A stretch of DNA of 64,000 nt, taken from assembly GCA_963798465.1 (NCBI GenBank), contig CAWCTC010000001.1:656465-720464 (forward strand), in the 5' to 3' direction. A program made the translations under genes and the position numbers. The notes beneath the pieces were generated by a model. The model was not told the DNA's origin and made no database searches. It saw only the letters and a program-made list of their open reading frames with translations. Position 1 is the stretch's first letter. Each line of letters starts with the position of its first letter. Of this stretch, positions 1,944-47,786 are shown piece after piece. This DNA is from an uncultured bacterium (lineage in GTDB: Bacteria > Patescibacteriota > Minisyncoccia > Phycocordibacterales > GWA1-40-21).

Positions 1944-1968
1944 AAATTAATATTATATACTTGTTAAT

Positions 1969-4264
1969 TTATTTCGCCACCTGCACCGCTTCTTCAAACT
2001 GAATAGAAAGCAATCTTGAAACGCCATCAGAGCCCATTGTTACTCCGTAAATAACGCCGGCACGAGACATCGTTTCCCTATTGTGAGTAATGAGGATGAG
2101 CTGGGAATATTTTGAAAGTTCGGAAATCATATCGCCGTATTTCTTGGAATTGGCTTCATCAAGAGCAGCATCCGTCTCATCAAGAATAATAAATGGTGGC
2201 GGATTCACCTGCGGAGATGGCAAAAAGAAGCGCGATGGAAGTAAAGCTCTTTCTCCGCCGGAGAGCATCATCAGTCCTTTTGTTTTTTTCTTGGCAAGAA
2301 ACTTCAATTTCCAATCCTTCTTCGGTTTCTTCTTCCTCGATTATTTCTTCACCTTCAGATTCGCCATGGCTGAAGTGAAATCTGTATCGGATTTTTTCCT
2401 CTTTTTTTCTTTCAGCAATAACAGAAAGCGAAGCAGAACCTCCGCCAAACATCGCTGAGAAGAATTGCTGGAATTCGAATTAATTTTTGCAACGCCGAGT
2501 TCGAATTCGGTTGCGAGTTTTTCATCAAGCTCTTTGATGAGATTTTTCAAAGATTACGGAAGAATTTATCAAATCGGTCAATTCTTTTTCAAGAAAAGTA
2601 TCGCGCTCCGTCGTTTCTTTGTATTCTTTCACAATTTCATCTCCTCCGGCAACTCCGGCATCTTCCAATCGGATTTTTATTTTTTCCATCACGCGTTTTT
2701 TGTCTTCCTGAATTTGTCTTGGTTCTTTTACAATTTGCTCGATTGAAAGTGCGATACCATCTGCATTTGTCGGCCAGAAATCCTTATAATGAAGCGCGGA
2801 AACGCCAACCAAAATCGAAGCTTCCTGAAGCTCTCGCTTGAATTCTTCTTCATCATGTCGCAATCTTGATTCCCTGCTTTCCAAACCATTTAATCTGCCG
2901 CGGATTTCATTTTGCTCAGCAACAATTCTGAACAATGATTTTTCCGCATCTCTGTTTGAATCTTTTTCTTTTTCAATATCATTTTTCAAAATATGAATAT
3001 TGCTCGGAAAGTTCTGTTTCAAGATTATTCGCGTCTTTCAGCTTGATTTCATAACCGGACTTTTCGATTTCCAGCTTTTTGATTTCGTTTTCCAAATCAT
3101 CGATTGCCTGCTTGTCTTCATTTTCTTTATTTCTTTCTATGAAATCTCTGAGGATTTTCTTGATTGAAGCAAAAATTTCTTTTACTTTTGAAAAATCATT
3201 TTCTGAAACGCCATCAATTTCCAAATCAATTTGCTTTGCGACATTTTCAATCTGCGACAAATCCACTGTCTTTTTTGACATCGCAGAGTTCGCTTCATTT
3301 TGTTTTTTTATCAATCTGGCAAGCGAAGAAATTTCTCCTTCGATTCTTCCGATGCTTCTCATCAGATTGATCTTTTAAATTGCGAACTTCTTTGAGTTTG
3401 CCTTCAACTTTTACAACTTCATCACTGCGAGAATCTTTTGATTCGGACTTCGCCAAAACTTCTTTCGCTTCAGCAAGTTCTTTTTCAAGTTTGTGCGAGC
3501 TTTCAATAAGCGGATTTTTTTCACTAGCGATGCTTTCTTTTTCAAATTTAATATATTCTTCTTCACGGCGAAAATAATCGTGATACATTTTTGTGAGATC
3601 TTCTTTCATCTCGACTGTTTTTTCGATTTTCTCGACAGCTTTTTTCAAAAATTTAATATGCGGAGCGATTTCTCTTCGCAGAGATTCGACTTGTTTTATA
3701 TTTTCTTCCGTTTTTTCGAGCTTGCGGATGCTTTCATCTTTTTTGTTCTGAAATATTTTTAGGCCGAGGGCATCTTCAATCATTTCCCTTCTCTCGCGGA
3801 TATTTGAATTCAAAATCTTGTCAGCTTCGCCCTGAGAAATTATCTGGTGGCCCGAAGCTCCGATATGTGCGCCGAAGAAAGAAGCTCAACGATATCTTTC
3901 AAACGGACAGAACTTCCGTTTATCAGATATTCGCTCGAAGAATCCCTGTTTACGACACGCTCGATTGCAACTTCATCAAAATCAATATTGAAAATTCTTT
4001 GAACATTATTGAAAGTCAATTTGACACGACGCGCGATTTGAACGAGCTGCATCTTTTCCGCCGTTAAAAATCAAATCTTCGGCTCTTTTTCCGCGCAATG
4101 ATTTGATGGATTGTTCACCCAAAACAAAACTAAACGCTTCGGCAACGTTTGATTTACCGGAACCATTCGGCCCGACAATAGCAGAAATCGGCACATTAAA
4201 ATCCAGCGTGGCTTTTTTTACCAAATGACTTGAATCCCGAAATTTCTATGCTCTTTAAATACAT
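1969..4264 (-). pseudogene. smc: SMC-family chromosome partition ATPase, broken by about 10 frame changes (true pseudogene or assembly indels)
   Basis: Collinear minus-strand fragments encode an N-head ([23 protein letters not shown] Walker A), long coiled-coil segments, 'FSAMFGGGSASL', and a C-head ('LSGGERAL/TSIALLFAIS/QVNPPPFIILDETDAALD') spread over alternating frames. Confidence 0.8.
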
Positions 4265-4330
4265 TTATACATGCTATTCTACCAAATTTTTTTAAAATTC
4301 GGTAGTGATTTTTTTGCCTGAAAATCAATA

Positions 4331-4360
4331 AAAAAACCTCCTGATTTAGGAGGCTTTTTC
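4331..4360 (-). terminator. Rho-independent terminator (CCTCCT/AGGAGG stem + U-run) overlapping stop of the 108-aa ORF
   Basis: Minus strand reads 'gcCTCCTaaatcAGGAGGttttttt'. Confidence 0.5.
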
Positions 4361-4672
4361 TTGAACATTTATTATCATACTATTAATAATTGATTCTATC
4401 TTTCCATCTTTATTATCGTAAAATTCATATTCAGACTGATCTGGTAATTTTTCACCAGACATCATAGCTATAAATGCGTTAGCCAAGAAATATTTATCAC
4501 GCTTTAAATTATTCTCATTCAAATATTCCATAAACTCTGGTCTCATAGTCGAGTCTAAATTGGGCAATAAATATTCAGCAATCTCAGACTTTAAACTATC
4601 AAAGTTTGTGAATTTTTCTGGCCTTTCTTGCTGTTCTTCCGATATTAAATTTAAATTTTCCATACTTTTCAT
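4346..4672 (-). CDS. Hypothetical acidic protein (108 aa)
   Basis: Intact ORF between rnc and smc with no recognisable motif. Confidence 0.45.
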   Translation of the reverse strand: MKSMENLNLISEEQQERPEKFTNFDSLKSEIAEYLLPNLDSTMRPEFMEYLNENNLKRDKYFLANAFIAMMSGEKLPDQSEYEFYDNKDGKIESIINSMIINVQEKAS

Positions 4673-4686
4673 AATTTTTATAAATA

Positions 4687-5007
4687 TTATTTGTGCGTTT
4701 CTGAAAACTTATAATCAAAATCCCTTATGAATTTTTCTATGTCTTTTTCTGGAGTATCAAATTTTTCAATTTCATCTTGCGGAGTGCTGCCGATAACTCT
4801 GTGCCACAAAATATAGTCCAGCGGATTATATCCTTTGTCCTCCAATTCTAAAATAAAATCTTTTGCAGCTTTTTGTCGTGCCATAAATTTATCCAAAGCA
4901 TGCGGAGCATTTCTGTCAACCAACAATAAAGCATTTATCTCGGAAAGAATTTCATTCTGTTCCGAAGTTAAATTTTCATATTCTTTTTTTCCTTGATAAC
5001 TTTCCAT
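4687..5007 (-). CDS. Hypothetical acidic protein (106 aa)
   Basis: Intact ORF 8 nt downstream of rnc with no recognisable motif. Confidence 0.45.
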   Translation of the reverse strand: MESYQGKKEYENLTSEQNEILSEINALLLVDRNAPHALDKFMARQKAAKDFILELEDKGYNPLDYILWHRVIGSTPQDEIEKFDTPEKDIEKFIRDFDYKFSETHK

Positions 5008-5015
5008 GAATATTT

Positions 5016-5717
5016 TTAATTTATTTCCCAGCCTTTGGCTTTCAGCGCATTTTTTGCCGCTTCCTGCTCGGCTTCCTGTTTTGATTTGCCTGTTCCTTCC
5101 GCGATTTTTTCTTTGCCTAGAAATACTCCGACTGTGAATTTTTTGTCATGATCCGGACCTTCTTCTTTCAAAGTTTTGTAAGCCGGCGTGACGCTTTCAT
5201 TTTCCTGCGCCTGTTCCTGAAATTTGCTTTTTGCATCAAGCCAAGTTTTTTCCTCGACTATTTTTTCGATAAGATTGAAAATGTATCTTGAAATGAAATA
5301 TTTTGCCATTTCATATCCTTGATCCAAGAATATTGCGCCAATCAAAGCTTCTATAGTATTTGCCAAAATAATCTGCCTGGCTCTTCCGGTATCTTTTGCT
5401 TCGCCTTTTGAAAGCAGAAGATAATCATTCATACCAATTTTTGAAGCGGCATCTGACATCGTGACGGCATTTACAAGTGCAGATCTGAAAGATGTCAGCT
5501 CTCCTTCATTACTGTCAGGATATTTTTCATATAAATGTTCAGTGACAATAAGTTCAAGAACCGCATCGCCCAAAAATTCTAATCTTTCATTGTGAACCAG
5601 TTCAGAATCCTTGTGCTCGTTCAAATAAGACCTATGGGTAAAAGCCTGTTTCAAAAGATTCTTGTCTTTAAAAGTTATTCCTATATTTTTTTCGAAACTT
5701 GAAAAATCTGGCTTCAT
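5016..5717 (-). CDS. rnc: Ribonuclease III
   Basis: Carries the RNase III signature 'NERLEFLGDAVLELIV' and a C-terminal dsRBD ('KKFTVGVFLGKEKIAEGTGKSKQEAEQEAAKNAL'). Confidence 0.92.
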   Translation of the reverse strand: MKPDFSSFEKNIGITFKDKNLLKQAFTHRSYLNEHKDSELVHNERLEFLGDAVLELIVTEHLYEKYPDSNEGELTSFRSALVNAVTMSDAASKIGMNDYLLLSKGEAKDTGRARQIILANTIEALIGAIFLDQGYEMAKYFISRYIFNLIEKIVEEKTWLDAKSKFQEQAQENESVTPAYKTLKEEGPDHDKKFTVGVFLGKEKIAEGTGKSKQEAEQEAAKNALKAKGWEIN

Positions 5718-5860
5718 TTACCCGAGGAAATTTTTGCCAATAAAAATTACTGTTTCGGCAAAACAGTGATATTCGTTATTTTTCTTGATTAAACCTGTTG
5801 TCATTATAAGTTGTTATGTAACAATTTTTAGAAACGTTGGCAAAAACTTTGACGGGTGAA
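5718..5860 (-). repeat. Family-1 intergenic hairpin element, copy A (abuts rnc ATG)
   Basis: The ends 'TTACCCGAGGAAATTTTTGCCAAT' and 'CGTTGGCAAAAACTTTGACGGGTGAA' form an imperfect inverted repeat. They are shared with the copies at 8886-9022 and 26458-26596. Confidence 0.75.
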
Positions 5861-5875
5861 CTTCTCGCTAAAATT

Positions 5876-6775
5876 TTATTGGTTATTTCTGCTGCTTATT
5901 ATTGTTATTGCTTTCGTGATGATTGGCAAGATGTCGTTGTAGAAATTTAAATTTTGAATATCTTGAAGCTTGAACCATTTTGCGTCATCAAGTCCTCCGC
6001 TGTCTCCGAGATGCAATTCCTTTCTGTCGGTTCGAGCAAGAAAATAAGTGACTTGTTTCCTAATCTTTCCTTCTTCAGGATGATTTGCAACATATTCATT
6101 TTTCAAAAGCTCTTCTTCAACTGTGATATCCAAACCGAGCTCGTCTTTTATTTCTCTCAGCACTCCGATTTTTGGATCTTCGCCTGGATTGATTTTACCT
6201 TTTGAAAGAGTCCATTTTCCAAAAACATCGTGAACGAAAGCAAAATAAATATTTCCGTCTTCAATACTATATATCACGGCTCCCGCAAGCTGTTTTATCG
6301 GCATCTTATCAAATGGAATATCTTTATGTTTTTTGGAAACTTCTTCTTTGCCCGGCTCTCCGAGCTCTTTGTAAATCGTTCCCAAAACTCCATTTATAAA
6401 ACCGCCGCTTTTTTCTCCGCTATAAGTTTTTGCAAGCTCAATAGCTTCGTTGATTGCAACTTTTGCCGGAACTTCTTTTCTATCAGAGAACAAAAGCTCA
6501 TAAAGCCCGATGCGCAAAATATTTCTGTCGGCAATCGAAATTTTGTCTATCGGCCAATCCGGCGCAGCTTTCACAATAATACTGTCCAAATCCGCTTTTT
6601 TGTCTATAACTCCTTTCAAAAGATTTTCTGAAAATGCTTTTTCGGAATTGCCTTCTCCAAACTCGGCATTATTTCTTTCAAGCGAGGCAAGAGCCTCTTC
6701 TCTCGAAGAATTGCGAAAATCCCACTCAAAGGCGGATTGAAATACTATTGATCTTGCAAGGTGCCTAGAAGACAT
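5876..6775 (-). CDS. nusB: NusB antitermination factor fused to a C-terminal Nudix hydrolase domain
   Basis: The N-terminal ~145 aa are NusB-like ('ADRNILRIGLYELLF..VPAKVAINEAIELAK..GFINGVL'). The C-terminal half carries a Nudix box, 'GKINPGEDPKIGVLREIKDELGL'. Confidence 0.8.
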   Translation of the reverse strand: MSSRHLARSIVFQSAFEWDFRNSSREEALASLERNNAEFGEGNSEKAFSENLLKGVIDKKADLDSIIVKAAPDWPIDKISIADRNILRIGLYELLFSDRKEVPAKVAINEAIELAKTYSGEKSGGFINGVLGTIYKELGEPGKEEVSKKHKDIPFDKMPIKQLAGAVIYSIEDGNIYFAFVHDVFGKWTLSKGKINPGEDPKIGVLREIKDELGLDITVEEELLKNEYVANHPEEGKIRKQVTYFLARTDRKELHLGDSGGLDDAKWFKLQDIQNLNFYNDILPIITKAITIISSRNNQ

Positions 6776-6879
6776 ATATTTTGCTTAGCTTTTTATGGCT
6801 TATTTGATTACTGAGATTATTCTATAATAAAAAAAGAAAAAAGAAAAGGCCTCGTGATAATATGCGCGAAGCCTTCTTT

Positions 6880-7290
6880 CTAACATATAATTGTTGATTT
6901 TTTCTTTAATAATTTTATCAACCTTCTTGTTTGCTTGTCATTACCTTCCAAACCCTCCAAAATTTTTTCCTTTCTTTCATCAGCACTTTTAAGATATTTT
7001 TTCACAGCAATAATAATCTGTGAATTAATATTAAAAGGTTCTGAAGAGTATGGTTGCTGAACGACTTTAAACTTATACATAAATGGATCCATAACAATAT
7101 GAACATCGTACCTCGATCTCGAATAGCATGAGTGCTCGTTTAAAGCCGGATATATATACAACTTCATTCCCCGACTTTTCAAAGCTTTGCACATTTCCAG
7201 CCACTCTTTTTTTACACTTTCTGACATTCCGCACAAAACAAGTTCAACCGCCATAGAATAACTATCTTTTGTAAAGATTTTTTTATTCAT
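6880..7290 (-). CDS. Hypothetical protein (136 aa) with strong SD
   Basis: Intact ORF preceded by 'AAAGGAGGtttttATG'. Confidence 0.55.
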   Translation of the reverse strand: MNKKIFTKDSYSMAVELVLCGMSESVKKEWLEMCKALKSRGMKLYIYPALNEHSCYSRSRYDVHIVMDPFMYKFKVVQQPYSSEPFNINSQIIIAVKKYLKSADERKEKILEGLEGNDKQTRRLIKLLKKKSTIIC

Positions 7291-7382
7291 AAAAACCTCC
7301 TTTTGTCCGATTGGACTATTCTTGTTTGGCTAACTTCCAAATACAAGGCTAGCACAAGAAAACATGCAGTCAAATAAAATAT

Positions 7383-7413
7383 AAAAGGGCGGTCGCTTCG
7401 CGACCGCCCTTTT
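7383..7413. terminator. GC-rich hairpin terminator (GGGCGGTCGC-TTC-GCGACCGCCC flanked by A/T runs)
   Basis: Perfect 10-bp palindromic arms directly after the rpmF stop. Same design as the hairpins at 16511 and 19698. Confidence 0.7.
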
Positions 7414-7418
7414 ATATT

Positions 7419-7685
7419 TTATTTTTTATCTTCCGTCTTTTTCTCAGCCTTTTTTGGTTTAGTTGCTTTTTCCGTCTTTGCTACTTTCGCAGTTTTGACT
7501 GGCTTCGGCTTCTTCTCCATATTTATTACAACTCTTCCTCTGTATTTTCCACAATTTGAACATGCTTGATGTCTCATAACTGGGCTGTTACAATCTGGGC
7601 ACTTTGTAAGTGCAATCCCTTTCAAAGCATGATGTGATCTCGTGCTTCCTCTCTGGGATCTATTATGTCTCATTCGGTTTACCAT
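7419..7685 (-). CDS. rpmF: 50S ribosomal protein L32 with Lys-rich C-terminal extension
   Basis: 'RMRHNRSQRGSTRSHHALK' plus a CxxC...CxxC zinc ribbon ('CPDCNSPVMRHQACSNCGKYRGR'), followed by a K/A/T/E-rich tail. Confidence 0.85.
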   Translation of the reverse strand: MVNRMRHNRSQRGSTRSHHALKGIALTKCPDCNSPVMRHQACSNCGKYRGRVVINMEKKPKPVKTAKVAKTEKATKPKKAEKKTEDKK

Positions 7686-7737
7686 AGTGAAAAAGAGTAT
7701 AGCGTATTTCTTTAAAAAAGAAAAGGCCCGGAATAAA

Positions 7738-8196
7738 TTATTCCGGGCCGTAACTTTTAATTATTTCTTGGAGAGTTTTGAACTCCTCGTCTGTTTTTTT
7801 AAACTCTCCAATTCTTAACATCTCGCCTATGAGCATTTTAAACTCCTTTTTTTGCTCAAAAGAAAGATTATTACTAATCTCAATAAGAGGCCTTACAAAA
7901 ATATCTCTTATGCTGTAAGGTACCTCTACAAAAATATAAAGTGACATCTTGTCATTCCTCGTATCAACACCGAATTCAATCGGCGACTCATCTTTATGAA
8001 GAACGATAAGTCCTTTTTTTTCCAATTCATTGGATACCCTATAAAAAATAATTTCCAACAAATTAGGAAACTTTTCATTCACTTCCACTTCAACAATCGG
8101 AAATTTATAATTTCCCGGAGTAGCATCCGCTACAACGGCATAAAAGCCGTTATGAAGATACTTCATACAAAAACAAGTGCATGACACTTTTACCAT
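7738..8196 (-). CDS. Hypothetical protein (152 aa) with strong SD
   Basis: Intact ORF preceded by 'AGAGGTGATcatccATG'. Confidence 0.55.
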   Translation of the reverse strand: MVKVSCTCFCMKYLHNGFYAVVADATPGNYKFPIVEVEVNEKFPNLLEIIFYRVSNELEKKGLIVLHKDESPIEFGVDTRNDKMSLYIFVEVPYSIRDIFVRPLIEISNNLSFEQKKEFKMLIGEMLRIGEFKKTDEEFKTLQEIIKSYGPE

Positions 8197-8264
8197 GGAT
8201 GATCACCTCTTTTTTCATATTTTAAACAACTCTTTTTTTGATTATACAATAATATTTTATATTG

Positions 8265-8867: not shown

Positions 8868-8885
8868 ATTAATATTATATATTAT

Positions 8886-9022
8886 TTACCCGAGAAAATT
8901 TTTACTGATGAAAATGTTATTGATAATATACCAACAATTTTAGTCTATCATTGTCATATTTTATTACCAAACTCTGTTAAATTACATTTTCAATAACATC
9001 AGTAAAAACTTTAACGGGTTAA
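8886..9022 (-). repeat. Family-1 intergenic hairpin element, copy B (18 nt upstream of rnhB ATG)
   Basis: The ends are 'TTACCCGAGAAAATTTTTACTGATGAAAATGTTATTG' and 'CAATAACATCAGTAAAAACTTTAACGGGTTAA'. The ACTGAT/ATCAGT pair covaries with GCTGAT/ATCAGC in copy C. Confidence 0.75.
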
Positions 9023-9026
9023 AAAC

Positions 9027-9064
9027 AAAAGGCGCAAGTTATTTTTTACTTTGCGCCTTTTTTG
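9027..9064 (-). terminator. Rho-independent terminator (GGCGCAA...TTGCGCC + U-run)
   Basis: Minus strand reads 'aaaaaGGCGCAAagtaaaaaataacTTGCGCCttttgttttt'. Confidence 0.55.
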
Positions 9065-9549: not shown

Positions 9550-9687
9550 ACTTTATCCACCCCCAAGGCAGAATTTTTTACAACAAATATAAAAGAACGA
9601 TATTCCTTATAATTTTACGACTGCGAATTATAGATGTCAATGAGTTTAATTATTTTATTTTTTGATATACTTAGCTTAACCAATTTT

Positions 9688-12600
9688 ATGGCAAAATTTA
9701 CCCATTTACATACGCATTCTCACTACTCTCTTCTAAACGCACTGCCTCAATTGAAGGAGCTTGTTAAAATGACGAAAGAACTCGGGATGTCATCTCTTGC
9801 TCTTACCGATGCAGGCAATATGTACGGCGCGATTGAGTTTTATCAGACATGCAAAAAAAATGATATCAAGCCAATCCTCGGCGTAGATTTTTATGTCGCA
9901 GCAAGAACTCGCCACGACAAGCAAGGAGGAATAGACAATCGCAGAGCAAGACTCGTTCTTCTCGCAAAAAATAATGCCGGTTATAAAAATCTCATCAAGC
10001 TCGTCACAGATTCATAACTTCGAAGGATTTTATTACAAGCCGAGAATCGACCGCGAACTTATGGAAAAATATTCCGACGGGCTCATCTGCATCATGCCGC
10101 ATTTTTCCGGAGAAATTTCTTATGCATTGAAAAATGGCGACACAGAAAAAGCAAAAGAAATTGTTGAATTGGTATAAAAAAGTTTATGGCGCGGAAAATT
10201 TCTTTTTGGAAATCACGCATCATCCGGAAATCGAAGGACAGATGGAGCTCAAAGAAAAAATAATAAAATTTGCAAAAGAAACAAAGACACCGACTTGTCG
10301 CCGCTCATGATGTTTATTATCTGAAACCTGAAGACAAAGCTGCACGCGACACTCTTGTCCAAGTAAATTCTCATTCCGATTTTTCAGACAGGGCAGATAG
10401 CGGAAGCACAGATGATTTTTCTCTTATTTCTCCGGAAAAAGCTGAAGAATATTTCAAAGACACTCCCGAAGCATTGGAAAATACTCAGAAAATTGCCGAG
10501 GCTGTGCAACATTGAAATAACGTTTCGGCCAAGCCGCTTGGAAATTTCCAAATTACATCGTTGAAAATGGAAATTCTTACGACGAAGAATTGCGAAGGCT
10601 TTCATACGAAGGATTGGAAAAAAGAGGATTGCCACATTCAAAAGAAGTTATAGACAGGCTCGAATATGAATTGAAAGTCATTCAAGATAAAGGCTATGCG
10701 CAATACTTTCTTGTCGTTTACCGATCTTCTCAAATTTTCAGAAGAAAATGAATATTTATACGAACATCAGAGGTTCCGTCGCAGGCTCTCTCGTCACTTA
10801 TGTCACAGGAATTACAAAAGTAAATCCGATTGAATACAAGCTTCCGTTTGAAAGATTTTTGAATCCTGAAAGGCCTTCCGCTCCCGATATCGATATGGAC
10901 TATGCCGACAACAGGCGCGATGAAGTCATCAATTATGCCAGAGAAAAATATGGAAAAGAAAATGTCGCGCAGATCGGAACTTTCGGAACAATGATGGCTC
11001 GCGGAGCTTGCAGAGATGTTGCGCGCGCAATGGGTTATCCTCTCGTTCTTGCAGACAAGATTGCAAAACTCGTGCCGATGGGTTCGCAAGGTTTTCCGAT
11101 GACGATCAAAAAAGCTCTGGCGGAAGTTGCTGAATTGAAAGAAATGTATAAAAATGACAAAGACACGAAAGCAATTATAGACATGGCGAAAAAAATAGAA
11201 GGTTGTGCACGACACATTTCCGTTCACGCAGCCGGAGTCGTCATTGCGCCTACTCCGCTCACAGATTACACTCCGCTTCAATATGATCCAAAAGGCGAAG
11301 GGAAAATCATCACTCAATATGATATGCACGCAGTCGGCGAAGATGGTGTCGGACTTTTGAAATTTGATTTTCTCGGAATTAAAAATCTTTCCATCCTTGC
11401 CGATGCGGTAAAACGCGTGAAAAAAATAGAAAATATAGATTTGGACATTGAAGAAATTCCGCTCGATGACAAACTCACTTTTGATCTTGCTCTCACGAGG
11501 AGAAACGACCGGGCTTTTCCAATTGAACGGCTCCGGCATGACAAAATATTTGAAAGATTTGAAACCGACGACTATCCACGATATCAACGCGATGGTCGCA
11601 CTTTACCGTCCAGGTCCGATTGAACTCATTCCGGAATATATCGAAAGAAAACACAATCAGAAAAAAATAAAATATTTCGATCCGAGAATGAAAGAATATC
11701 TCGATCTTTCTTACGGGCTTATCGTGTATCAAGATGACGTCATGCTGACGGCTATCAAGCTTGCCGGATATTCCTGGCTTGAAGCGGACAAACTCAGAAA
11801 AGCCATGGGAAAGAAAATCCCAGCGGAAATGGCAGGCGCAGAAAGATAAAATTCTGAAAGGTTTTATCGAACATGGACTGACAGATAAAAAAGCAGATAC
11901 GCTTTGGAAACTCATCGAGCCTTTCGCAGCTTACGGTTTCAATAAAGCTCACGCAGCAAGCTATGGAAGAGTTGCATATCAGACCGCTTACATGAAAGCA
12001 AACTTCCCTGCAATCTATATGTCCGCAGTTCTTACAGCAGACTCTGGCGATGTGGAAAAAATCGGCGAGTTCATCGCAGACTGTAGAAAAATGGGAATTC
12101 CTGTTTTGCCTCCAAGCGTAAACGAAAGCTTCAGCGACTTCACCGTTGTAAAAACTCCCGGAGCAGATGTTCATTCAGTCGGTGAAGATCGCGACAAGAT
12201 TCGCTTCGGACTTACAACAATAAAAAACTTCGGCGAAGAAATTTCAAAAGTTATAATTGAAGAAAGAAAGAAAAATGGAAAATTCACTTCCCTTTCAAAC
12301 TTCTTGGAAAGAATCATCGACCGAAATCTGACAAAAAGATCGCTTGAACCTCTCATAAAAACCGGCGCACTCGACGAATTCGGCGAAAGAGGCCAGATGC
12401 TTGCAAATGCTGAAAATCTTTTAAAATATAATAAAGAGATCGGCAAAAAAGATCAAAATCAAGATTCTCTTTTTGGAATGTTCGACGGCCCATCCGAAGA
12501 TGGAAAAACAAAAGAAGCTTTCACTCTCCTACCAGCACCGGAAGCCACGATGAAAGAAAAACTTTCCTGGGAAAAAGAATTGCTCGGACTTTATATTTCC

Positions 12601-12945
12601 GGACATCCGCTTGATAAATATAAAAGCATTTTGGAAAAACAAAAAATTACAATAAAAAGAATCAAAGGAGATACAGAAAATGTAAAAAGCATCGTTGACG
12701 GCGGACAGCCAATCGGCGGAATCATCGAAGAAGTCCGCGAAATAACGACCAAAAATAACGAGCTTATGGCTTTCATAAAAATTGCAGATTTGACCGGCTC
12801 AATCGACGCAGTAGTTTTTCCAAGGACTTATGCCGAAATGAAAAATGCAATCACGCCGGACAGATGTGTTGCAGTCATTGGAAAAGTTTCTGAAAGAAAT
12901 GGAGAAATAAGTTTGATTATAGATAAACTTAAAATTTTGGAATAA
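9688..12945 (+). pseudogene. dnaE: DNA polymerase III alpha subunit, about 9 frame changes between ~10,000 and ~11,850
   Basis: The PHP domain ('FTHLHTHSHYSLL'), 'EGFYYKPRID', 'RGSVAGSLVTYVTGIT', 'PDIDMDYA', 'GLLKFDFLGIKNL', 'ALYRPGP' and 'YGFNKAHAASYG' are collinear but spread over three frames. The last 1.1 kb is intact. Confidence 0.85.
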
Positions 12946-19780: not shown

Positions 19781-21869
19781 TTAAATATCAATATTCGCCA
19801 ATTTTGCATTTGACTGTATGAAAGCTTTTCTCGCAGGAACATCGGTACCCATGAGCATATCGAATGTTTTATCCGCTTCTTGTGCATCAATTACAGTAAC
19901 TCTTTTCATCATTCTTCTTGCCGGATCCAAAGTTGTTTCCCAAAGTTCGTCTGCATTCATTTCTCCAAGACCTTTATATCTTTGAACTGAAACTTTCGGA
20001 CCTTTTTTGGTTTCAATTTCTTCATCCTCAACAATTTCTTCTGATGTCGATTCAACTTCGGCAACTTCGCTATCGGCAATTTTTTCTTTTTTAAAAAAGG
20101 CTTCTTTTTCTTCCTCTGTATAAAAATAATGAACTTCTTTTCCTATTTTAACTTTATACAATGGCGGCTGCGCAATACAAATATGTCCACCATCTATGAG
20201 CGGTCTAAAATATCTGTAGAACAAAGTTAGAAGAAGCGTTGTAATGTGCGCTCCATCAACGTCAGCATCGGTGGCAATAATTATTTTATGATATCTTAAT
20301 TTTTCAATATCAAATGTATCTCCTATCGCGGTGCCGAGCGCTACGACAATATTTTTTATCATTTCTGATTCAAGCATTTTATCAAGTCTTGCTCTTTCAA
20401 TGTTCAAAATTTTTCCTCGAAGCGGAAGTATCGCTTGAATTTTTCTATCGCGTCCCATCTTTGCCGTACCGCCTGCAGAATCTCCCTCCACAATTATTAT
20501 TTCTGATTCTGATGCATCCTTGCTTTGACAATCTGCAAGCTTACCGGGAAGCGTCATTCCTTCAAGTGCACCTTTTCTGAGTATTGAATCCTTCGCGGCC
20601 TTAGCTGCTTTTCTCGCTTTAAGAGCTAAAATTACCTTAGAAACTATTGCTCTTGCATCATCTGGGTTCTCTTCAAGAAAGGCTCCGAAAGCCTCGCCAA
20701 AGACCTCTTCAACTGCGCCACGAGCCTCGACAGAACCAAGCTTTGCTTTCGTCTGACCTTCAAATTGAATTTCGCGGAGCTTCACAGAAATGACAGCAGT
20801 CAAACCTTCAAGTACATCATCTCCGGTAAAATTTTCCTCACTTTCTTTTGTCAGATTATTTTTTCTTGCATAATTATTCAGCGATCTCGTGAGAGAGGTT
20901 TTGAAACCTGTGACATGAGTTCCGCCTTCAGGAGTTTCAATATCGTTTGCAAATGCCATAATCCTCGAAGAAATATCATCAACATATTGCAATGCTATTT
21001 CTACAGATTCAACTCCTGCAGCTTTTTTCTCAACATAAAAAACATTTTTATGAATTGGTTTTTGAAATTGATTGTAAAATTTAACAAGAGATAAAAGTCC
21101 GCCTTCAAAATAAAAAGATTGCGATGGCGCTTCTATATCCAAGTTCTGAAAAATAAAATACTTCTTTATCGTCGATTTTTTCTGTAATTTCTCTTGCATC
21201 CATTGCAGTGATTCTCAAACCTTTTACAAGATAAGCTTGTTGTCTCATGTGAGAAACCACGCTGTTGAAATCAAAAACAATTCCCTCTTTGAAAATTTCA
21301 GGATCCGGCTCAAAAGTAACTATCGTTCCATGTTTGTCTGTCTTTCCGATTTTTTTTACAGAAGCTTTTGGTTTTCCTTTTGCATATTCTTGAATGTAAA
21401 TCGCGCCATCTTTATGAACGACAACTTTCATGTAAGTTGAAAGAGCGTTCACTACTGAAGCTCCGACTCCGTGAAGTCCTCCGGAAACTTTATATTCTGT
21501 TCCTTCACCTCCAAATTTTCCTCCAGCATGAAGGACGGTCATAATGGTTTCGAGTGCTGAAACTTTTGTTTGTTTGTGAATATCTACAGGAATACCTCTT
21601 CCGTTATCTGTAACTCTTACTCTGTTTCCAGGCAATAAAACAATCTCGATGTGATTGCAATAACCGTTCATCGCTTCATCGCGAGAATTGTCAAAAATCT
21701 CTGTTATAAGGTGATGCAAACCATCTGGACCTGTTGTTCCAATATACATACCTGGACGCCTTCTGACGGGCTCCAGCCCCTCAAGGACCTGGATGGCACT
21801 GGCATCATAATGATGTTCACTCTTTGCTTCTTTTTTGGGTTTTTCTTGCCCGTTCAAATTTTTTGCCAT
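19781..21869 (-). pseudogene. gyrB: DNA gyrase subunit B with a single +1 insertion in a T-run (~21,150)
   Basis: The N-terminal GHKL ATPase ('LEGLEPVRRRPGMYIG', 'DNGRGIPV') and the Toprim/C-terminal part ('EIIIVEGDSAGG', 'IIATDADVDGAHI') lie in two frames. The junction 'TTT TAT TTTT CAG' restores '..KEVFYFQNLDIEAPSQSFYFEGG'. Confidence 0.88.
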
Positions 21870-22143
21870 AATTATATATGTTTATAATATTTACTTTTAC
21901 TTGTTATAATAAGCCTTTATGTACAGCCCTATTTCTTCAAAAAACTTGTTCGGGTGAAGCATAATTTAAAAACAGCTTATAGCTTTTTATACCTTGTATT
22001 ATAACAAATAATCGGCGTAAAAGAAACAGAAAATTGGGTTTTTATAAAATAAATTCCTAAAATATTAAATAAAAAGCTATTTACATATTATTTTTATTGT
22101 GTTAATCTAGCAATAGAAAAACAAATCTGAAAGGAGGTATTAC

Positions 22144-22320
22144 ATGGACAAAATAGATATAGAGATAAAAGAACTTGTAAGAAATTATCTATCTTCTACA
22201 GAAACACCGACCCAGAACGATAAGCACATAAGAGAATCAGCAATAAAGTTAAACAAACCTGTTTCTCTAATGAGGGGTAAGTTCAACGACAAATTGGATG
22301 AAATGAATCCCTTCAGGTAA
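22144..22320 (+). CDS. Small hypothetical protein (58 aa), strong SD
   Basis: 'AAAGGAGGTattacATG' precedes MDKIDIEIKELVRNYLSSTETPTQNDKHIRESAIKLNKPVSLMRGKFNDKLDEMNPFR. The ORF falls below the ORF-track size cutoff. Confidence 0.5.
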   Translation: MDKIDIEIKELVRNYLSSTETPTQNDKHIRESAIKLNKPVSLMRGKFNDKLDEMNPFR

Positions 22321-22366
22321 TTACAGATTTTTGCCTCGATGTACATTTTAAAAAATAGGAGGATTA

Positions 22367-22543
22367 ATGGAAACATTGACAAAAACTTTGGCTGAAAGAC
22401 GCGTAAATGATCTAATGAAAAATATTGCCGGCAAAAATATAAATTCAAGGGCAATCGAAAAAGCCGCCAAAAAAATTGCTGGAGAGACAAAAACAAATCT
22501 CGAAAAAGTAAGAACGATGATATCCGAAAAAAACAACAAATAA
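22367..22543 (+). CDS. Small hypothetical protein (58 aa), strong SD
   Basis: 'ATAGGAGGAttaATG' precedes METLTKTLAERRVNDLMKNIAGKNINSRAIEKAAKKIAGETKTNLEKVRTMISEKNNK. A terminator follows. Confidence 0.5.
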   Translation: METLTKTLAERRVNDLMKNIAGKNINSRAIEKAAKKIAGETKTNLEKVRTMISEKNNK

Positions 22544-22560
22544 GAAACTAATCGGATATA

Positions 22561-22589
22561 AAGAGCTAGGTCAAACCTAGCTCTTTTTT
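22561..22589. terminator. Bidirectional terminator (AAGAGCTAGG-TCAAA-CCTAGCTCTT + T-run)
   Basis: 10-bp perfect stem between the convergent small-ORF pair and the 190-aa gene. Confidence 0.7.
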
Positions 22590-23160
22590 ATTTCTCCGTA
22601 AAAATTACCAATCTTTTCCAGCCGAGTTTAAATTTATCTATTTCTACAAAAAGATTCTCGCCTCCATTTTCTTCCGGCATTTCCGGATCATGATAATAAA
22701 ATCCGTTTATTTTTCCTTTATCATCTTTTTCATAGCCGACAATCACAATTCCGTGATGCCTGTCTTTCTCAGTAAAATATTTGTAGATTGAAACAATCGA
22801 TGGCATTCCTTCGTCTATTTTTTCTGCAATTTTTCCTATTCCCTTTTCCAAAAATAAATCTGACATCGGGCCGGCTTTCATTTCTCCATTTTTTATATCC
22901 ACATCAACAGATTTAAATTCTTGAGCATACGCGGAAATCCCGTGGTTTCTAAAAAGCCTTATGACTTCGTTGTGTTTCCAGAATTTGCCATCCCAGGCGC
23001 CGACAGAAGTTCCCTCTTTTATCCAATCGTCAGCTGGAATATTTTTTTCTCCCAAAAATTCAGCCACCATTTTTATACAAACAACAAGACAAGAGTGAGC
23101 TTTCCATTCAGGATCTATCACATCTGTGCGCTGAGAATAATATGGTACTTTTAATTTCAT
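22588..23160 (-). CDS. Papain-like cysteine peptidase, C39-like (Peptidase_C39_2-type)
   Basis: 'VPYYSQR', the candidate Cys in 'AHSCLVV' and the candidate His in 'RHHGIVIVGY' follow the order seen in C39-like domains. Confidence 0.5.
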   Translation of the reverse strand: MKLKVPYYSQRTDVIDPEWKAHSCLVVCIKMVAEFLGEKNIPADDWIKEGTSVGAWDGKFWKHNEVIRLFRNHGISAYAQEFKSVDVDIKNGEMKAGPMSDLFLEKGIGKIAEKIDEGMPSIVSIYKYFTEKDRHHGIVIVGYEKDDKGKINGFYYHDPEMPEENGGENLFVEIDKFKLGWKRLVIFTEK

Positions 23161-23268
23161 CCCGTAAAGAAATTTTAATATTTTGATAATTTCGACTTCT
23201 TGATAAATTGATTCTATACTTTTTTAGAAAAATTTTAATACTGAGCTGAATTTCACACGGGACAAGTA
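23161..23268 (-). repeat. Family-2 intergenic element, copy 1 (fills pheT stop to next ATG)
   Basis: The left block 'CCGTAAAGAAATTTTAATATTTTGATAATTTCGAC' and right block 'ACGGGACAAGTA' are shared with 61805-61914. The minus-strand ends CCCGU...ACGGG can pair, and ACGGG directly abuts the ATG. Confidence 0.65.
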
Positions 23269-23271
23269 TAA

Positions 23272-25632
23272 TTATCTTACTTGCCAATCTTTTTTTGCAT
23301 TCATCTTATCGGTAATTTTCTGCATAATTGCATTTACTTCATCATCAGAAAGAGTTTTTTCATATGACTGAAAAATTATTCTGTATGCGTAAGAAGTTTT
23401 TTTAGTTCCGTCTTCCAAAGTTTTTGTGAAGACATCGAACAATCTGTTTTTCAACATAAGTTCTCCAGCATTTTTATTTATTATTTCCAAAACTTCATCG
23501 GCTTTCGTTCCTTCCGGAGTAAATACAGCAATATCGCGAATCATGAACGGAAATGGTGAAATCTTTTTAAATTTTAAGTCTCTACCATCTTCTTTTGGAA
23601 AATCATATTCTAAAACATCGGGTAAATTCTTAATCATATCTGAAATTAAAAATTCAGCGATATTTTCATCATTATTTATCTTCTCTAGTTTTAAGTTTAG
23701 TGTTTCAGAAAGCTTCTTCAAAGTTGCATCAAGCACATCTTTTTCTTTTGGTTTTTTAACTCCTGCTGGATTTTGTACTCCAATGACAAAATTTTCAGTT
23801 TCTCCATTAAAACTAAATACATGGCCAAATTCAAATATTTTTATTTGAGGCATATCAATAAGTTCAGAATATCTAGCATTTAGATCTAAAGAATCCTTGA
23901 TACCAGAAGAAAGATTAGTTCTCAAATATTTTTTCTCTGGAGATAAAGGTTTTAATAATTCAATATCACCCTTCTTTACAAAAGAGTAATTCATTACTTC
24001 AGAAAAACCTTCTTCATACAAAAAATTTCTTATTTTTTGCTTATAAGCAAAAACTTTATTTGTTTTTGGTTTTTTTATTGAATCAGGAATATCAATATAT
24101 TTTATTTTATCGTAACCATATATCCTTCCTATCTCTTCCGCGAGATCTTCCTTGATTCTCAAATCCAATCTTTCATCAGGAACAGTAATGACAAATCTTT
24201 CTTCATTGTCAGACATTCTTCTGTATCCGACGATATTTTTGAATCTTTCTGATATTTTTAAATCTTCTATAACTACTTTTCCTGTAAGAGATGTTGCATG
24301 AGTAACTTTTCCATCTCCTAAATATAATCCGCAATGATCTACCCCCTCTAGAACTTTAGTGCCAGGTAAAAATTCAATTGTTTCTGTGTATATCTTTCCA
24401 TCTTTTGTATTTGAAAATATAACATCTCCAGCCTTCAAATCTTTTTCTTCTATTTTTTCTCCAAACACATATTGATCAACTGACATTCTTGGAATCTGAA
24501 TTCCCGCTTGAGCAAAAAGGTTGCTGACAAAACCTGAGCAATCAAAAGCTTTCGGCGCATCGTAAGTTATGCTTGCTCCACGTTTATATGGAACTCCAAC
24601 AAAAGTTGGTGCGAGTTTCAAAACCTCATCAATCGGTCTGACTTTCTTCCATTCAAAATTAAATCTGTCAAAAATCTTTTCAATATCAGAATCTTTTATT
24701 GGAACGCCGATTATTGAGCTTGCTTCGGCTGAAGAAATGCCGAGCTTGAATTTATTTGCTCTTTTTGGATAATTATCTACAACATCTCCAACTTTTGTAT
24801 CTTTTGTTCCGGCAATTTCAACAATTAATTTTGTGAGAATATCCATCGCTTCCCCGCAAAGCTCAGGCGTCAAATCATTTTCATATCTTTTTGAAGCATC
24901 TGTTTGAATTTTAATTTTTTGTGCGGTTTTTCTTATGTTTACCGGGCTAAAATTCGCCGACTCCAAAATAATATTTTTTGTATTGAGATCGAGCTCAGCA
25001 AAATCTCCGCCTTTTATGCCGGCAATTGCAAGCGGATTTTTTCCGTCCGTAATAAGCAGGACGCTTTCATCAAGCTCGACTTCTTTTTTATCAAGAGTTG
25101 TTATTTTTTGGCCTTTCCCGGCATTTTTAACGACAATTTCATTGCCGATTTTATCAGAATCAAAAGCGTGCATCGGCTGGCCGATTTCAAGCATGACAAA
25201 ATTTGTCGCATCAACAATATTATTTATCGATCTCTGTCCGAGTATTTCCAGCTTTTCCGCTAGCCATTTTGGCGAAGGACCAACTTTGATATTTTCAACG
25301 ACTCTTCCGATATATCTTCTGCACAGTTTTTCATCATCAATTTTTACTTCAAGATTTTTTGAAGTTTTTGAAATATTAAAATCTTTAAATTTTCTAGAAT
25401 ATTTTTCTATTTTAATATCAGCAATAGTTCCGAGTTCTCTTGCAATTCCTCTGTGACATAAGCAACTATGATTTAAGTTTGGCGTAGCTTTTGTATCTAT
25501 GACAACATCACCATTCATTTTTTCAGTTCCTTCAACTTCCATCGAATGCATTTCCAAAAGCTCCACCGTTTTTTCAACTTTCGGTGCTTTGCCATTAAAA
25601 TATTCATTTAACCATTTATAAGAAACTTTCAT
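23272..25632 (-). CDS. pheT: Phenylalanine--tRNA ligase beta subunit carrying an internal NlpC/P60 insertion
   Basis: B1, B3_4 ('NNIVDATNFVMLEIGQPMHAFD'), B5 ('FVITVPDERLDLRIKEDLAEEIGRIYGYDKI'), core and C-terminal FDX-ACB-like segments are all present and intact. No OB-fold B2 domain was seen. Confidence 0.9.
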   Translation of the reverse strand: MKVSYKWLNEYFNGKAPKVEKTVELLEMHSMEVEGTEKMNGDVVIDTKATPNLNHSCLCHRGIARELGTIADIKIEKYSRKFKDFNISKTSKNLEVKIDDEKLCRRYIGRVVENIKVGPSPKWLAEKLEILGQRSINNIVDATNFVMLEIGQPMHAFDSDKIGNEIVVKNAGKGQKITTLDKKEVELDESVLLITDGKNPLAIAGIKGGDFAELDLNTKNIILESANFSPVNIRKTAQKIKIQTDASKRYENDLTPELCGEAMDILTKLIVEIAGTKDTKVGDVVDNYPKRANKFKLGISSAEASSIIGVPIKDSDIEKIFDRFNFEWKKVRPIDEVLKLAPTFVGVPYKRGASITYDAPKAFDCSGFVSNLFAQAGIQIPRMSVDQYVFGEKIEEKDLKAGDVIFSNTKDGKIYTETIEFLPGTKVLEGVDHCGLYLGDGKVTHATSLTGKVVIEDLKISERFKNIVGYRRMSDNEERFVITVPDERLDLRIKEDLAEEIGRIYGYDKIKYIDIPDSIKKPKTNKVFAYKQKIRNFLYEEGFSEVMNYSFVKKGDIELLKPLSPEKKYLRTNLSSGIKDSLDLNARYSELIDMPQIKIFEFGHVFSFNGETENFVIGVQNPAGVKKPKEKDVLDATLKKLSETLNLKLEKINNDENIAEFLISDMIKNLPDVLEYDFPKEDGRDLKFKKISPFPFMIRDIAVFTPEGTKADEVLEIINKNAGELMLKNRLFDVFTKTLEDGTKKTSYAYRIIFQSYEKTLSDDEVNAIMQKITDKMNAKKDWQVR
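24199..24642 (-). other. NlpC/P60 (C40 peptidase-like) module embedded in PheT (aa ~331-478)
   Basis: 'VGVPYKRGAS....FDCSGFVSNLF...DHCGLYLGDGKVTHAT' shows the canonical NlpC/P60 order with Cys, His and His present. Confidence 0.75.
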
Positions 25633-25694
25633 TGTTTTTATTTTTTGTATTTATTCGTAGCCATTCGTAACATTCGCATAATATTCGTATCTTA

Positions 25695-26453
25695 TTAAAA
25701 TTGATTTACTAATCTCAAGTCTCCAGAATATAAAAGTCGGATATCATCTATTTCATATTTAAGCATTGCAAGTCTGTCTACTCCAAAACCAAAAGCAAAA
25801 CCTCTCCAATCATTAGAATTTATTCCTACACTATTTAAAACTTTTGGGTGCACCATTCCTGCACCACCGAGCTCAAGCCATCCAGAACCTCCGCAAAGCT
25901 GACACTTACCTTCTCCTTTGCATTTAAAACAAGTGACGTCAACTTCAACACCTGGTTCAACAAAAGGAAAATAACTAGGTCTAAATCTAACATTTACATC
26001 CTTCTTTAAAAATTTATCAAAAAAAGTATTTATTGTAGATTTTAAATCAGCTAAGGAAACATTCTTATCTACAAGAAGTCCTTCACACTGGTGAAATAAC
26101 GCTTCGTGTCTTGCATCTGTAGCTTCATTTCTAAAAACTCTTCCTGGACAAATTATTTTGAAAGGAGGTTTATTATTTTCCATATAACGAATCTGCATGG
26201 CACTAGTTTGGGTGGTCATAAGTCTATCTTCTTTTTCTCCAAAATTTTTACTTGATTTAATCCAAAAAGTATCCTGCATATCGCGCGCAGGGTGATCCTT
26301 AGGAACATTTAGTGCATCAAAATTGTGGTATTCGTCTTCTAGCTCAGGACCATCTACTAGAGTAAATCCCATCTCAAAAAAGATTCTGTTCATGTCGTCT
26401 ATAACACGAGTGAGCGGATGAATATGTATATTTTTTTGATTTGTATCTTGCAT
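25695..26453 (-). CDS. pheS: Phenylalanine--tRNA ligase alpha subunit (short form, no N-terminal coiled coil)
   Basis: Carries the class II motifs 'HPARDMQDTF', 'PGRVFRNE', 'FRPSYFPFVEPGVEVDV' and 'GAGMVHPKVL..GFAFGFGVDRLAML'. Confidence 0.92.
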   Translation of the reverse strand: MQDTNQKNIHIHPLTRVIDDMNRIFFEMGFTLVDGPELEDEYHNFDALNVPKDHPARDMQDTFWIKSSKNFGEKEDRLMTTQTSAMQIRYMENNKPPFKIICPGRVFRNEATDARHEALFHQCEGLLVDKNVSLADLKSTINTFFDKFLKKDVNVRFRPSYFPFVEPGVEVDVTCFKCKGEGKCQLCGGSGWLELGGAGMVHPKVLNSVGINSNDWRGFAFGFGVDRLAMLKYEIDDIRLLYSGDLRLVNQF

Positions 26454-26457
26454 ATGT

Positions 26458-26596
26458 TTACCCGAGAAAATTTTTGCTGATAAAAATGTTATTGCTAATA
26501 TTTTGATAAATTATATTTTATTACTATTTCTGCCCTGATAGATACAGTATCTTTTTTGCATTTTCAATAACATCAGCAAAAACTTTAACGGGTTAA
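26458..26596 (-). repeat. Family-1 intergenic hairpin element, copy C (4 nt from pheS ATG)
   Basis: The ends are 'TTACCCGAGAAAATTTTTGCTGATAAAAATGTTATTG' and 'CAATAACATCAGCAAAAACTTTAACGGGTTAA'. Confidence 0.75.
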
Positions 26597-29745: not shown

Positions 29746-29754
29746 CAAAAAAAA

Positions 29755-45146: not shown

Positions 45147-45189
45147 GGAATTTTCTATTTCCTATTTTCCACAGCACTTTTTAACGGAG

Positions 45190-45272
45190 ATCGATTTGCG
45201 AAGCTCGTCTGAGCAAAGCGAGTCGTGTTTTGCTGTCCGCGGTGGCGGACACTTCTACCGTAAAGAAAACCT
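45190..45272 (-). repeat. Family-4 ~85-nt repeat, copy 2 (between secA and mltG)
   Basis: 'ATCGATTTGCGAA..AAAGCGAGTCGTG..GTCCGCGGTGGCGGACACTT..CG.AAAGAAAACCT'. Confidence 0.7.
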
Positions 45273-45317
45273 AGTGTGTTAAATTTTAATAAATTTAACA
45301 CTTTTCTTATATTTTTT

Positions 45318-47786
45318 CTACTTACCACAGCACTTCTTGAACTTCTTACCTGAACCGCAAGGGCAAGGATCATTTCTTCCGACTTCATCTTTCTTTTTTG
45401 CGGAAATTTGTGTATTGTCGGCCTTTCCTTCCCGCCGGCCATTTTCATTCCTTTCTGAGTTTCTTTCATTTTTTCTTCTTCGGCAACAAAGGCACCGGCT
45501 CCAATATGAGGCAAAAGACTTAATACCTGCGCATTTATCGCTAATTGCATTTCTTTGAAAAGTCCAAGCCCTTCTCTTTTATATTCGACAAGCGGATCCC
45601 TTTGTCCATAAGCGCGAAGATTTACCGAGCCACGCAAATAATCCATCATTTCCAAATGATCCACCCAGAACATGTCTATAGCCTGAAGCATTATTATTCT
45701 CGCAATTCTGTAAAATTCTTCTTCTCCGAGTGCAGTAATTTTTTCCGCTATAATTTTCTGGGAATTTTCATCAACTGCGATTTCCGATAATTTTTCTTTC
45801 ACAGCTTCAATTCCGCCGGTCAAAATTTTTCTTCTTCTTTCATAAACGGTTTTTCTTTGGAAATTCAAAACATCGTCGTATTCCAAAACATTTTTTCTGG
45901 CATCAAAATTGAAACCTTCTATTTTTGTCTGCGCATTTTCAAGAGCTCTCGTTATGAGAGAATTTTCAATCGGCTCGTCTTCAGGAATTCCGAATCTATT
46001 CATCATTTTTTTGACAGTATCATTTGCAAAAATTCTCATCAGAGAATCTTCGAGCGAAACGAAAAATCGAGTTTCTCCGGGATCTCCTTGTCTGCCGGAT
46101 CTTCCTCGAAGCTGATTGTCGACTCTTCTTGCATCATGTCTTTCCGTTCCAAAAACACAAAGTCCGCCGAGAGATTTTACTTTTTCATATTCTTCCTTGT
46201 CAAAAATAAATCCTCCGAGTTTGATATCAACTCCTCTTCCGGCCATGTTCGTGGCAACGGTGACAGCTCCGAATTTTCCCGCGCCCGCAGTTATTTCTCC
46301 TTCTTTTTCATGATTCTTTGCATTCAAAACATTGTGAGGCACGCCTTCTCTTTTCAAAAATTCAGAAAGCAATTCATTTTTCTCGATTGAAACAGTACCG
46401 ATGAGCACCGGCTGACCGGCTTTATGCTTTTCTTTTATCATCCTCGCAAGCGCCATAAATTTTCCCTGTTCTGTCTGGAAAATCAAATCATTCAAATCTT
46501 TTCTCTGAGTCGGCACATTTGTCGGAACAGGAATAGTGTCCATACTGTAAACTTTGAAAAATTCTTCGCTCGATGTCAGAGCGGTTCCCGTCATACCGGA
46601 AAGCCTTTTGTATAATCTGAAATAATTTTGATATGTGATGGAAGCAAAAGTTCTCGATTCTTTTTGGATTTTTACGCCTTCTTTCGATTCAATCGCCTGA
46701 TGCAATCCTTCGGACCATCTTCTTCCCGGCTGAAGTCTTCCAGTAAATTCATCGACAATAATTATTTCTCCGTCTTTCACGACATAATCCGTATTTATTT
46801 CATAAAGCGCTTTTGCGCGAGTCGCCGTTTCCAAATGGTGGACATATTTGATTCCTCCTTCGGTATAAATATTTTCAACTCCTAAAGATTTTTCGGCTTT
46901 ATTTATTCCGGCATCTGTGAGCTGTATCGCTTTATGCTTTTCATCTACAGTATAATCGACGTCTTTTACAAAACCGCTGACAATTTTAGTAAAAACATCG
47001 TAAAGTTCTCCGGAATCTTGCGCCGGCGCAGAAATAATGAGCGGAGTTCTTGCTTCATCAATAAGAATAGAGTCGACTTCATCGACGATTGCAAAATTAT
47101 ATCCTCTTTGCCTCAATTTGCTGACATCATATTCAATATTGTCTCGCAGATAATCAAAACCGAATTCATTGTTTGTTCCATAAGTGATATCAGCTTCGTA
47201 TGCTTGTCTTCTCGAACAAGGTTTCAAAAATTCATGGACAACTTTGAAAGAACCGATTTCATCTACTTTCTTCGTCGAGCTCAACATGAGCCGGATCATA
47301 AAGATAAGAAGCTTCATGATTTAAAATTCCGACAGACAAGCCGAGTGCGTTATAAATCTGCCCCATCCAAACTGCGTCTCTTCTCGAAAGATAATCATTG
47401 ACAGTGACGACATGAACGCCTTCTCCGGAAATTGCATTCAAATATGCCGGCAATGTTGCAACAAGAGTTTTTCCTTCTCCGGTTTTCATCTCGGAAATAT
47501 TTCCTCGATGAAGAATAATTCCTCCAACCAATTGGACATCAAAATGTCTTAACTTTAAAGTTCTTTCAGATGCTTCTCTGACTGCGGCAAAAGCTTCCGG
47601 CAATATCAAATCTAGTTCTTCTCCATTTTTCAATCTGTCTCTGAATTCCTGAGTTTTATTTTTAAGCTGTTCATCCGAAAGTTTTTTCAAATTATCAGAA
47701 AAAGACCCTATTTGCGCGATAATCGGCTCTAAAGTCTTTATATATTTTTCATATCTGTCTCCAAAAATTTTGTTCAAAAATGACAT
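45318..47786 (-). pseudogene. secA: Preprotein translocase ATPase SecA with at least 2 frame changes (~47,280 and ~45,400)
   Basis: The N-terminus (47259-47786, '[19 protein letters not shown]') and body (to ~45,400) lie in different frames. The zinc-finger tail '[20 protein letters not shown]' is in a third frame and ends at 45318. Confidence 0.88.

Follow-up and report, generated by a model that had tools for sequence, protein, structure and literature searches.

Clustered frame changes in an smc-like gene of a Patescibacteria assembly as probable consensus errors in strain-variable segments

Indels left in a long-read consensus are known to break up gene calls (PMC9262707), and in assemblies of this kind (PMC9262707; the proovframe preprint, 10.1101/2021.08.23.457338; the IDEEL test) conserved genes appear split into adjacent open reading frame (ORF) fragments, although removal of the indels gives back the full-length protein and the genes are otherwise under purifying selection. 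A second route is known from a diploid eukaryote, in which the collapsing of alleles with nearby variants produces INDEL errors and apparent frameshifts, errors that track allelic divergence and do not occur where the alleles agree (Cosentino et al. 2021, PMC8445201). Genuine pseudogenes in reduced genomes likewise present as conserved genes with many frameshifts. Here we set against these three systems an smc-like ATPase gene whose frame is repeatedly broken in the deposited assembly of an uncultured bacterium, within a 64-kb stretch of contig CAWCTC010000001.1 that was analysed at its full length (the window; all positions are window coordinates). The window is low-GC DNA (~34% GC), and the names of its closest homologues place the host among the Paceibacteria-type members of Patescibacteria. 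The locus has the adjacent ORF fragments, the recoverable full-length protein and the purifying selection of the long-read artefacts, but these are classically genome-wide, homopolymer-centred and deletion-biased, whereas the events here lie in few patches, are mostly insertions and are mostly outside homopolymers. As in the collapsed haplotypes, the errors follow allelic divergence and spare the stretches in which the alleles agree, with the difference that here the ‘alleles’ would be those of co-existing strains in a metagenome, deduced from a second assembly and not seen in reads. The many frameshifts in a conserved gene are shared with genuine pseudogenes; unlike these, the locus lacks relaxed selection, nonsense mutations and a deletion bias, the breaks strike housekeeping genes that growth requires, and same-strain contigs do not carry those that are testable.

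The frame changes in the smc-like gene are, in our assessment, very probably errors of the assembled consensus and not mutations of the organism, whose real gene would be an intact smc-like gene of ~2283 nt (760 aa). That an artefact of some kind underlies them we hold with high confidence, and the frame breaks are very unlikely to be biology. Six-frame translation shows the gene split over all three frames, and a reference-free codon-usage frame tracker cuts 1970-4216 into eight frame segments. Global alignment to the intact orthologous gene of a related contig (L001, ~91% DNA identity), by which the events were placed, gives 203 mismatches and 13 frame-changing events (Table 1), nine of which add bases and four of which remove one base each, for a net gain of 13 nt (2296 vs 2283 nt). 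An apparent further pair at 2505/2498 proved to be an alignment artefact and is not counted. The event density is ~1 per 155 bp over 4219-2216, and the length of a long base run is clearly altered in just two cases (A6 to A7 at 4213-4219 and A8 to A7 at 2289). Events 8 and 9 are jointly in frame (+9), with one frame open throughout, and events 12 and 13 jointly scramble the TSIALLFAIS segment directly after the LSGGERAL motif. The sequence-only reading that preceded this analysis had listed about ten frame changes in smc, all of which match real events, but the total is 13 and its list omitted the events at 2405 and 2372, which compensate each other and leave one frame open. The A7 run that it cited is real but was placed 7 nt off, at 4206-4212, and the close -1/+1 pair that it saw scrambling the LSGGERAL-TSIALLFAIS region corresponds to the events at 2242 and 2216.

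The most direct evidence comes from contigs of sequencing run ERR11594402 in the Logan project assembly, which is k-mer-based; these same-run contigs were retrieved via exact matches to the window’s intact proteins. Look-ups of the same kind with the products of 1425-1943, rnhB and yceG gave no record, probably owing to another start-codon choice in the collection, and the contigs obtained end at or within conserved genes. The window’s proteins are also indexed on a contig of 0.2-1 Mb, which would be in keeping with a highly contiguous source assembly of long-read style. Contig L011 equals the window over 7412..4224 (3189 bp, 0 differences) and from 4223, 42 nt into smc, departs from it by 15 substitutions and three indel events in 447 bp, its own smc frame remaining open up to the contig end (162 aa). 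Contig L180 equals the window over 26486..21157 (5330 bp) and, beyond a mini-patch in gyrB, is identical again to 20456, with its gyrB frame open for 471 aa. For the gyrB mini-patch and this part of smc the two contigs are thus a second assembly of evidently the same strain, without the frameshifts: all four that are testable against same-run contigs (three in smc, one in gyrB) are absent there. Outside the patches two substitutions and no indels separate the two assemblies in ~28.3 kb, compared with 21 substitutions and four indel events in 790 bp inside them (Fisher P ~1e-37). The sole non-patch differences are G/A substitutions 3 nt apart, at 166 and 169, in the C-terminus of RNase R (11-280, +). 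Among the same-run partial proteins no match above ~80% identity was found for the rest of the smc patch (the C-terminal 338 aa) or for the dnaE patch (230 aa), and an indel-tolerant exact pattern over 2216-2242 retrieved no same-strain copy from genome and metagenome contig collections. The earlier suggestion of assembly patches that are poorly polished or of low quality is supported.

The L011 substitutions in the smc patch comprise 13 synonymous and two conservative changes, and 12 of the 15 are transitions. Since most are synonymous, they look like natural allelic differences that selection has filtered rather than like random error. In a three-way comparison the window and L011 smc alleles are sisters, ~3.3% apart and each ~8% from the alleles of two relatives, L001 and L014; the smc patch is therefore a segment in which two genomes identical in their flanks hold different alleles. 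Its boundary is informative too. L001 and L014 are ~90% identical to the window overall but share a 445-bp segment with it exactly (Table 1), and the smc patch starts precisely where this shared segment stops. Depending on the relative, the shared segment spans 445 to ~750 bp (to ~4968 against L014) at 100% DNA identity, while the flanking genes of the relatives differ by 9-15%; rnc, nusB and hyp106 show mosaic identities among L001, L002 and L014. Taken together, the shared segment and the mosaic neighbours suggest recent recombination between these populations.

Comparison with relatives also shows how the gene has been maintained. Ten contigs that carry the closest intact smc orthologue, P0001 (L001-L010), have the gene order of window 1950-12945, at a DNA identity of 86-98% by segment. 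After projection of the window onto the relatives’ codons, which corrects the frame, dN/dS comes to 0.05 in smc and 0.07 in dnaE, compared with 0.04-0.12 for rnc, nusB and hyp106, which are intact neighbours. The smc differences are distributed over codon positions 1:2:3 as 31:7:164, the corrected frame contains no substitution-made stop codon, and none of the shifts is present in any relative compared. In dnaE, synonymous and non-synonymous codon changes stand in the same ratio within the patch (64:22) and after it (53:13). Once frame-corrected, the smc allele is under strong purifying selection, with no sign of decay.

The encoded protein combines Walker A (GPNGSGKSN) in its N-terminal part and long stretches of coiled coil with a C-terminal LSGGERAL signature motif followed by Walker B, with ILDETDAALD present, and so displays both the N- and the C-terminal SMC head features of TIGR02168 (SMC_prok_B). 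Pfam SMC_N matches it with E 4.6e-62, and Smc head domains are its best matches among solved structures (E 1e-85). The product, frame-corrected by hand, has 766 aa and is 93% identical over its full length to P0001 (760 aa), the best match among hundreds of Paceibacteria relatives with an intact ~760-aa orthologue. Against NCBIfam TIGR02168, P0001 scores 495.7 bits, under the cut-off of 567.35, with its best stretch at model positions 1-474 of 1181; it is the absence of the central part with the hinge that keeps the score below the threshold for canonical SMC, and Pfam detects no SMC_hinge domain in the smc-like protein. P0001 accordingly departs from the full-length bacterial SMC architecture (~1180 aa, a central hinge and a score above the curated cut-off). 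The gene is a short SMC-like family form typical of the whole lineage and is not the outcome of the indels, the hinge-less form of ~760 aa being common to hundreds of Paceibacteria orthologues.

Three further genes are broken in the window, namely dnaE, gyrB and secA (Table 1), as the sequence-only reading had noted, but gyrB and secA carry one break each and only smc and dnaE are dense. The dnaE events, called relative to L001, L002, L014 and L016, are insertions at 10015, 10163, 10293, 10504, 10522, 10720, 10750, 11489 and 11833, and removal of exactly these nine bases gives a perfect 1100-aa ORF. The secA break sits inside a linker whose length varies among relatives. The uneven distribution stressed in that reading far exceeds what chance would give: of the window’s 24 events, 22 fall within 3.8 kb of its 64 kb (binomial P ~3e-25), and pheT (786 aa) and thrS (580 aa), cited there as clean neighbours, are indeed intact, as are gatB, obg, murB and the glycosyltransferase cluster. 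Insertions of 1-2 nt make up 19 or 20 of the 24 events (P ~8e-4 against 50:50), and none of the 24 is a deletion of more than 2 nt. About five alter a base run (4219, 2289, 2555, 11833 and 21140), the others lying outside homopolymers, and inspection showed neither a motif shared around the insertion sites nor a regular spacing. The frame tracker had also suggested a broken gene at 41.8-45.2 kb; this was rejected, as Pfam resolves the region into a row of separate small genes. Public collections contain short dnaE fragments on other long contigs, namely P0349 (135 aa; contig of 717 kb) and P0332 (132 aa; contig of 47 kb), which suggests the same frameshift fragmentation of dnaE in other highly contiguous assemblies of related bacteria.

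Table 1. Features of the window and same-run contigs aligned to it (window coordinates)
Feature	Position	Strand	Description
smc-like ATPase gene	1969..4264	-	frame broken by 13 indel events in this assembly
Indel-dense smc patch proper	2216..4223	-	4223, first difference from same-run contig L011; 2216, last frame change
Segment 100% identical to L001 and L014	4224..4668	-	445 bp; hyp108, intergenic region and first 41 nt of smc
smc event 1	4213..4219	-	+1 in homopolymer (at 4219): A7 here, A6 in L011, L001 and L014
smc event 2	4027..4029	-	+1 at serine codon: window TCGT, L011 AGT, L001 TCT
smc event 3	3865..3869	-	+2 (CA/AT): window CACATATC, L011 CACATC, L001 CATATC
smc event 4	3369	-	+1 (C), outside homopolymer
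smc event 5	2992	-	+1
smc event 6	2555	-	+1 (A)
smc event 7	2476	-	-1
smc events 8, 9	2369..2409	-	net +4 (~2405) and net +5 (~2372), low-complexity acidic/lysine linker
smc events 10, 11	2289..2300	-	two -1, ~10 nt apart (~2297; 2289, A8 to A7)
smc events 12, 13	2216..2242	-	-1 (G lost at 2242) and +1 (at 2216)
dnaE	9634..12945	+	9 single-base insertions; final 1.1 kb of gene clean
gyrB	21869..19781	-	one break: single insertion
gyrB mini-patch	20814..21156	-	343 bp; 6 substitutions and inserted G (21140) vs same-run contig L180; identical either side
secA	47786..45155	-	one break (+1 or -2) at 47259..47317
Same-run contig L012	1-1872		2 substitutions
Same-run contig L017	7383-8863		0 differences
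Same-run contig L013	13652-16535		0 differences
Same-run contig L018	16664-19726		0 differences
Same-run contig L179	47776-57908		0 differences in 10,133 bp

Within the artefact explanation we lean towards a specific mechanism based on strain variation. The sampled population would include close relatives at strain level that share the same sequence across most of the region but carry different natural alleles in a few segments, i.e. in smc, in dnaE and in short parts of gyrB and secA. Such variable segments would form bubbles in the assembly graph, bounded by stretches common to the strains, and the end of the 445-bp shared segment would be a natural point at which strain paths branch or switch. 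There the consensus may have been built badly, either from few reads of a minor strain or from a mixture of reads of two alleles, and either route could yield single-base indels, mostly insertions, while the flanks, covered by reads of all strains, would come out clean. The density of substitutions in the patches relative to the same-strain contigs points to strain-variable segments of this kind rather than to simple gap filling with single reads. One variant, in which the consensus would retain the two alleles of a polymorphic site as a doubled single-nucleotide polymorphism (SNP), is a possibility that fits the smc events at 4029, 3866 and 2216, and six of the nine dnaE insertions follow a wobble base.

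Several points weigh against this account. The same-strain check covers four of the 24 events and three of the 13 in smc, and the same-run contigs possibly derive from the window’s own reads, such that the assembly is independent but the data perhaps are not. What the analysis shows is the absence of the testable indels from the second assembly, intact selection on the gene and the coincidence of the patches with allelic divergence; the read-level cause, the depth, the mixture of alleles and the sequencing technology are inferred. The divergence of dnaE from its relatives is no greater within the patch than outside it, and the second allele that a doubled SNP requires is absent at the dnaE sites among the available haplotypes. 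Most insertions are also outside homopolymers (in dnaE eight of nine are not homopolymer extensions, and six of the nine inserted bases are G), unlike the classic nanopore signature of homopolymer deletions; indeed the insertion spectrum is the textbook signature of no platform.

The alternative that survives best is an artefact that involves no strain variation, in which the patches would be unpolished or low-coverage noisy long-read consensus, e.g. gap fills, and the substitutions would be errors too, or L011 and L180 would come from a slightly different strain. With 0.4-0.6% indels and a surplus of insertions, the patches do resemble raw or draft long-read consensus, three of the six gyrB patch substitutions are non-synonymous and so compatible with errors, and the divergence of dnaE from its relatives is not raised in the patch. 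We nevertheless regard this alternative as tentative and rather unlikely: 13 of the 15 smc-patch substitutions are synonymous and 12 are transitions, as in filtered natural variation and unlike random error, the patch boundary coincides with the end of a stretch that the genomes share, and the flanks are 100% identical over kilobases.

A real decay of the genes, the second possibility raised by the sequence-only reading, is highly improbable. The strain would then truly possess frameshifted smc, dnaE, gyrB and secA, in a decaying or defective genome or with intact paralogues elsewhere. The frame breaks are physically in the deposited sequence, where the frame is disrupted relative to intact orthologues, and genome reduction is common in small episymbiont-like bacteria. 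However, a dN/dS of 0.05-0.07, like that of intact neighbours, the lack of nonsense substitutions in the corrected frame and the lack of any non-synonymous excess are not what relaxed selection would leave. If roughly 10% of spontaneous mutations are indels, as mutation-accumulation studies suggest, 13 of them should bring on the order of 100 neutral substitutions and several stops. Bacterial gene decay is reportedly deletion-biased (Mira, Ochman and Moran 2001), but the events here are insertion-biased and include no large deletions. Four growth-required housekeeping genes are struck while 50 kb of other genes are clean, and their joint loss, smc, dnaE, gyrB and secA being generally required for growth, would presumably not be viable. 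The orthologues are single-copy and intact in the syntenic loci examined, and the comparison with sister genomes called for at the outset finds smc intact in hundreds of relatives. All four testable lesions, finally, fail to recur in the same-strain contigs.

There is a very slight chance that the indels are real in another sense, belonging to a co-existing strain (or its relic or extracellular DNA) whose smc, dnaE, gyrB and secA natural alleles were functional until recently and gained small insertions in bursts that were restricted to recombination tracts. Such bursts could arise when homologous recombination involves error-prone repair synthesis, and if true they would amount to a localised ‘mutation shower’ mechanism in very small bacteria, which would be remarkable. 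Programmed recoding, in which ribosomes would change frame or transcription would slip at the sites of the shifts, we consider extremely improbable: two events do lie in A7/A8 runs and poly(A) slippage reportedly rescues frameshifted genes in some endosymbionts (Tamas et al. 2008), but the 13 shifts go in both directions and mostly lie outside slippery or homopolymer sequence, no relative conserves any of them, and the same-strain contig is without the three that it covers. An alternative genetic code is rejected, as the problem is one of frame changes rather than in-frame stops.

The main value of attributing the breaks to consensus error is as a quality flag and not as biology. Automatic annotation would list smc, dnaE, gyrB and secA as pseudogenes or as split, and such calls would distort completeness estimates, metabolic and essential-gene inventories and claims of gene loss for bacteria with reduced genomes. 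The errors are uneven and are located where co-existing strains would differ; clusters of frameshifts accompanied by synonymous SNPs could therefore mark collapsed or wrongly chosen strain segments in metagenome-derived genomes that are otherwise near-perfect.

Other features of the window stand apart from the broken genes. The intact pheT gene (23272-25632, -; also L180 855-3215; 786 aa) encodes an NlpC/P60 peptidase domain at aa 346-466, between B3_4 and B5, which is an unusual fusion or insertion. Two ORFs, one with an IS200-like Y1 transposase domain and one matching the Pfam ‘23S rRNA intervening sequence protein’, lie at 38184-38843 and 41775-42191, both amid housekeeping genes. A gene at 61918-63891 (-) for a 657-aa TraG/TrwB/HerA-like ATPase, of the coupling-protein type of type IV secretion systems, adjoins a glycosyltransferase/polysaccharide cluster (51.9-61.7 kb). 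The only above-threshold Rfam match in the window is a single tRNA gene at 29673-29745 (+), which falls within a 680-nt stretch (29515-30196) scored as non-coding by the codon-usage frame tracker.

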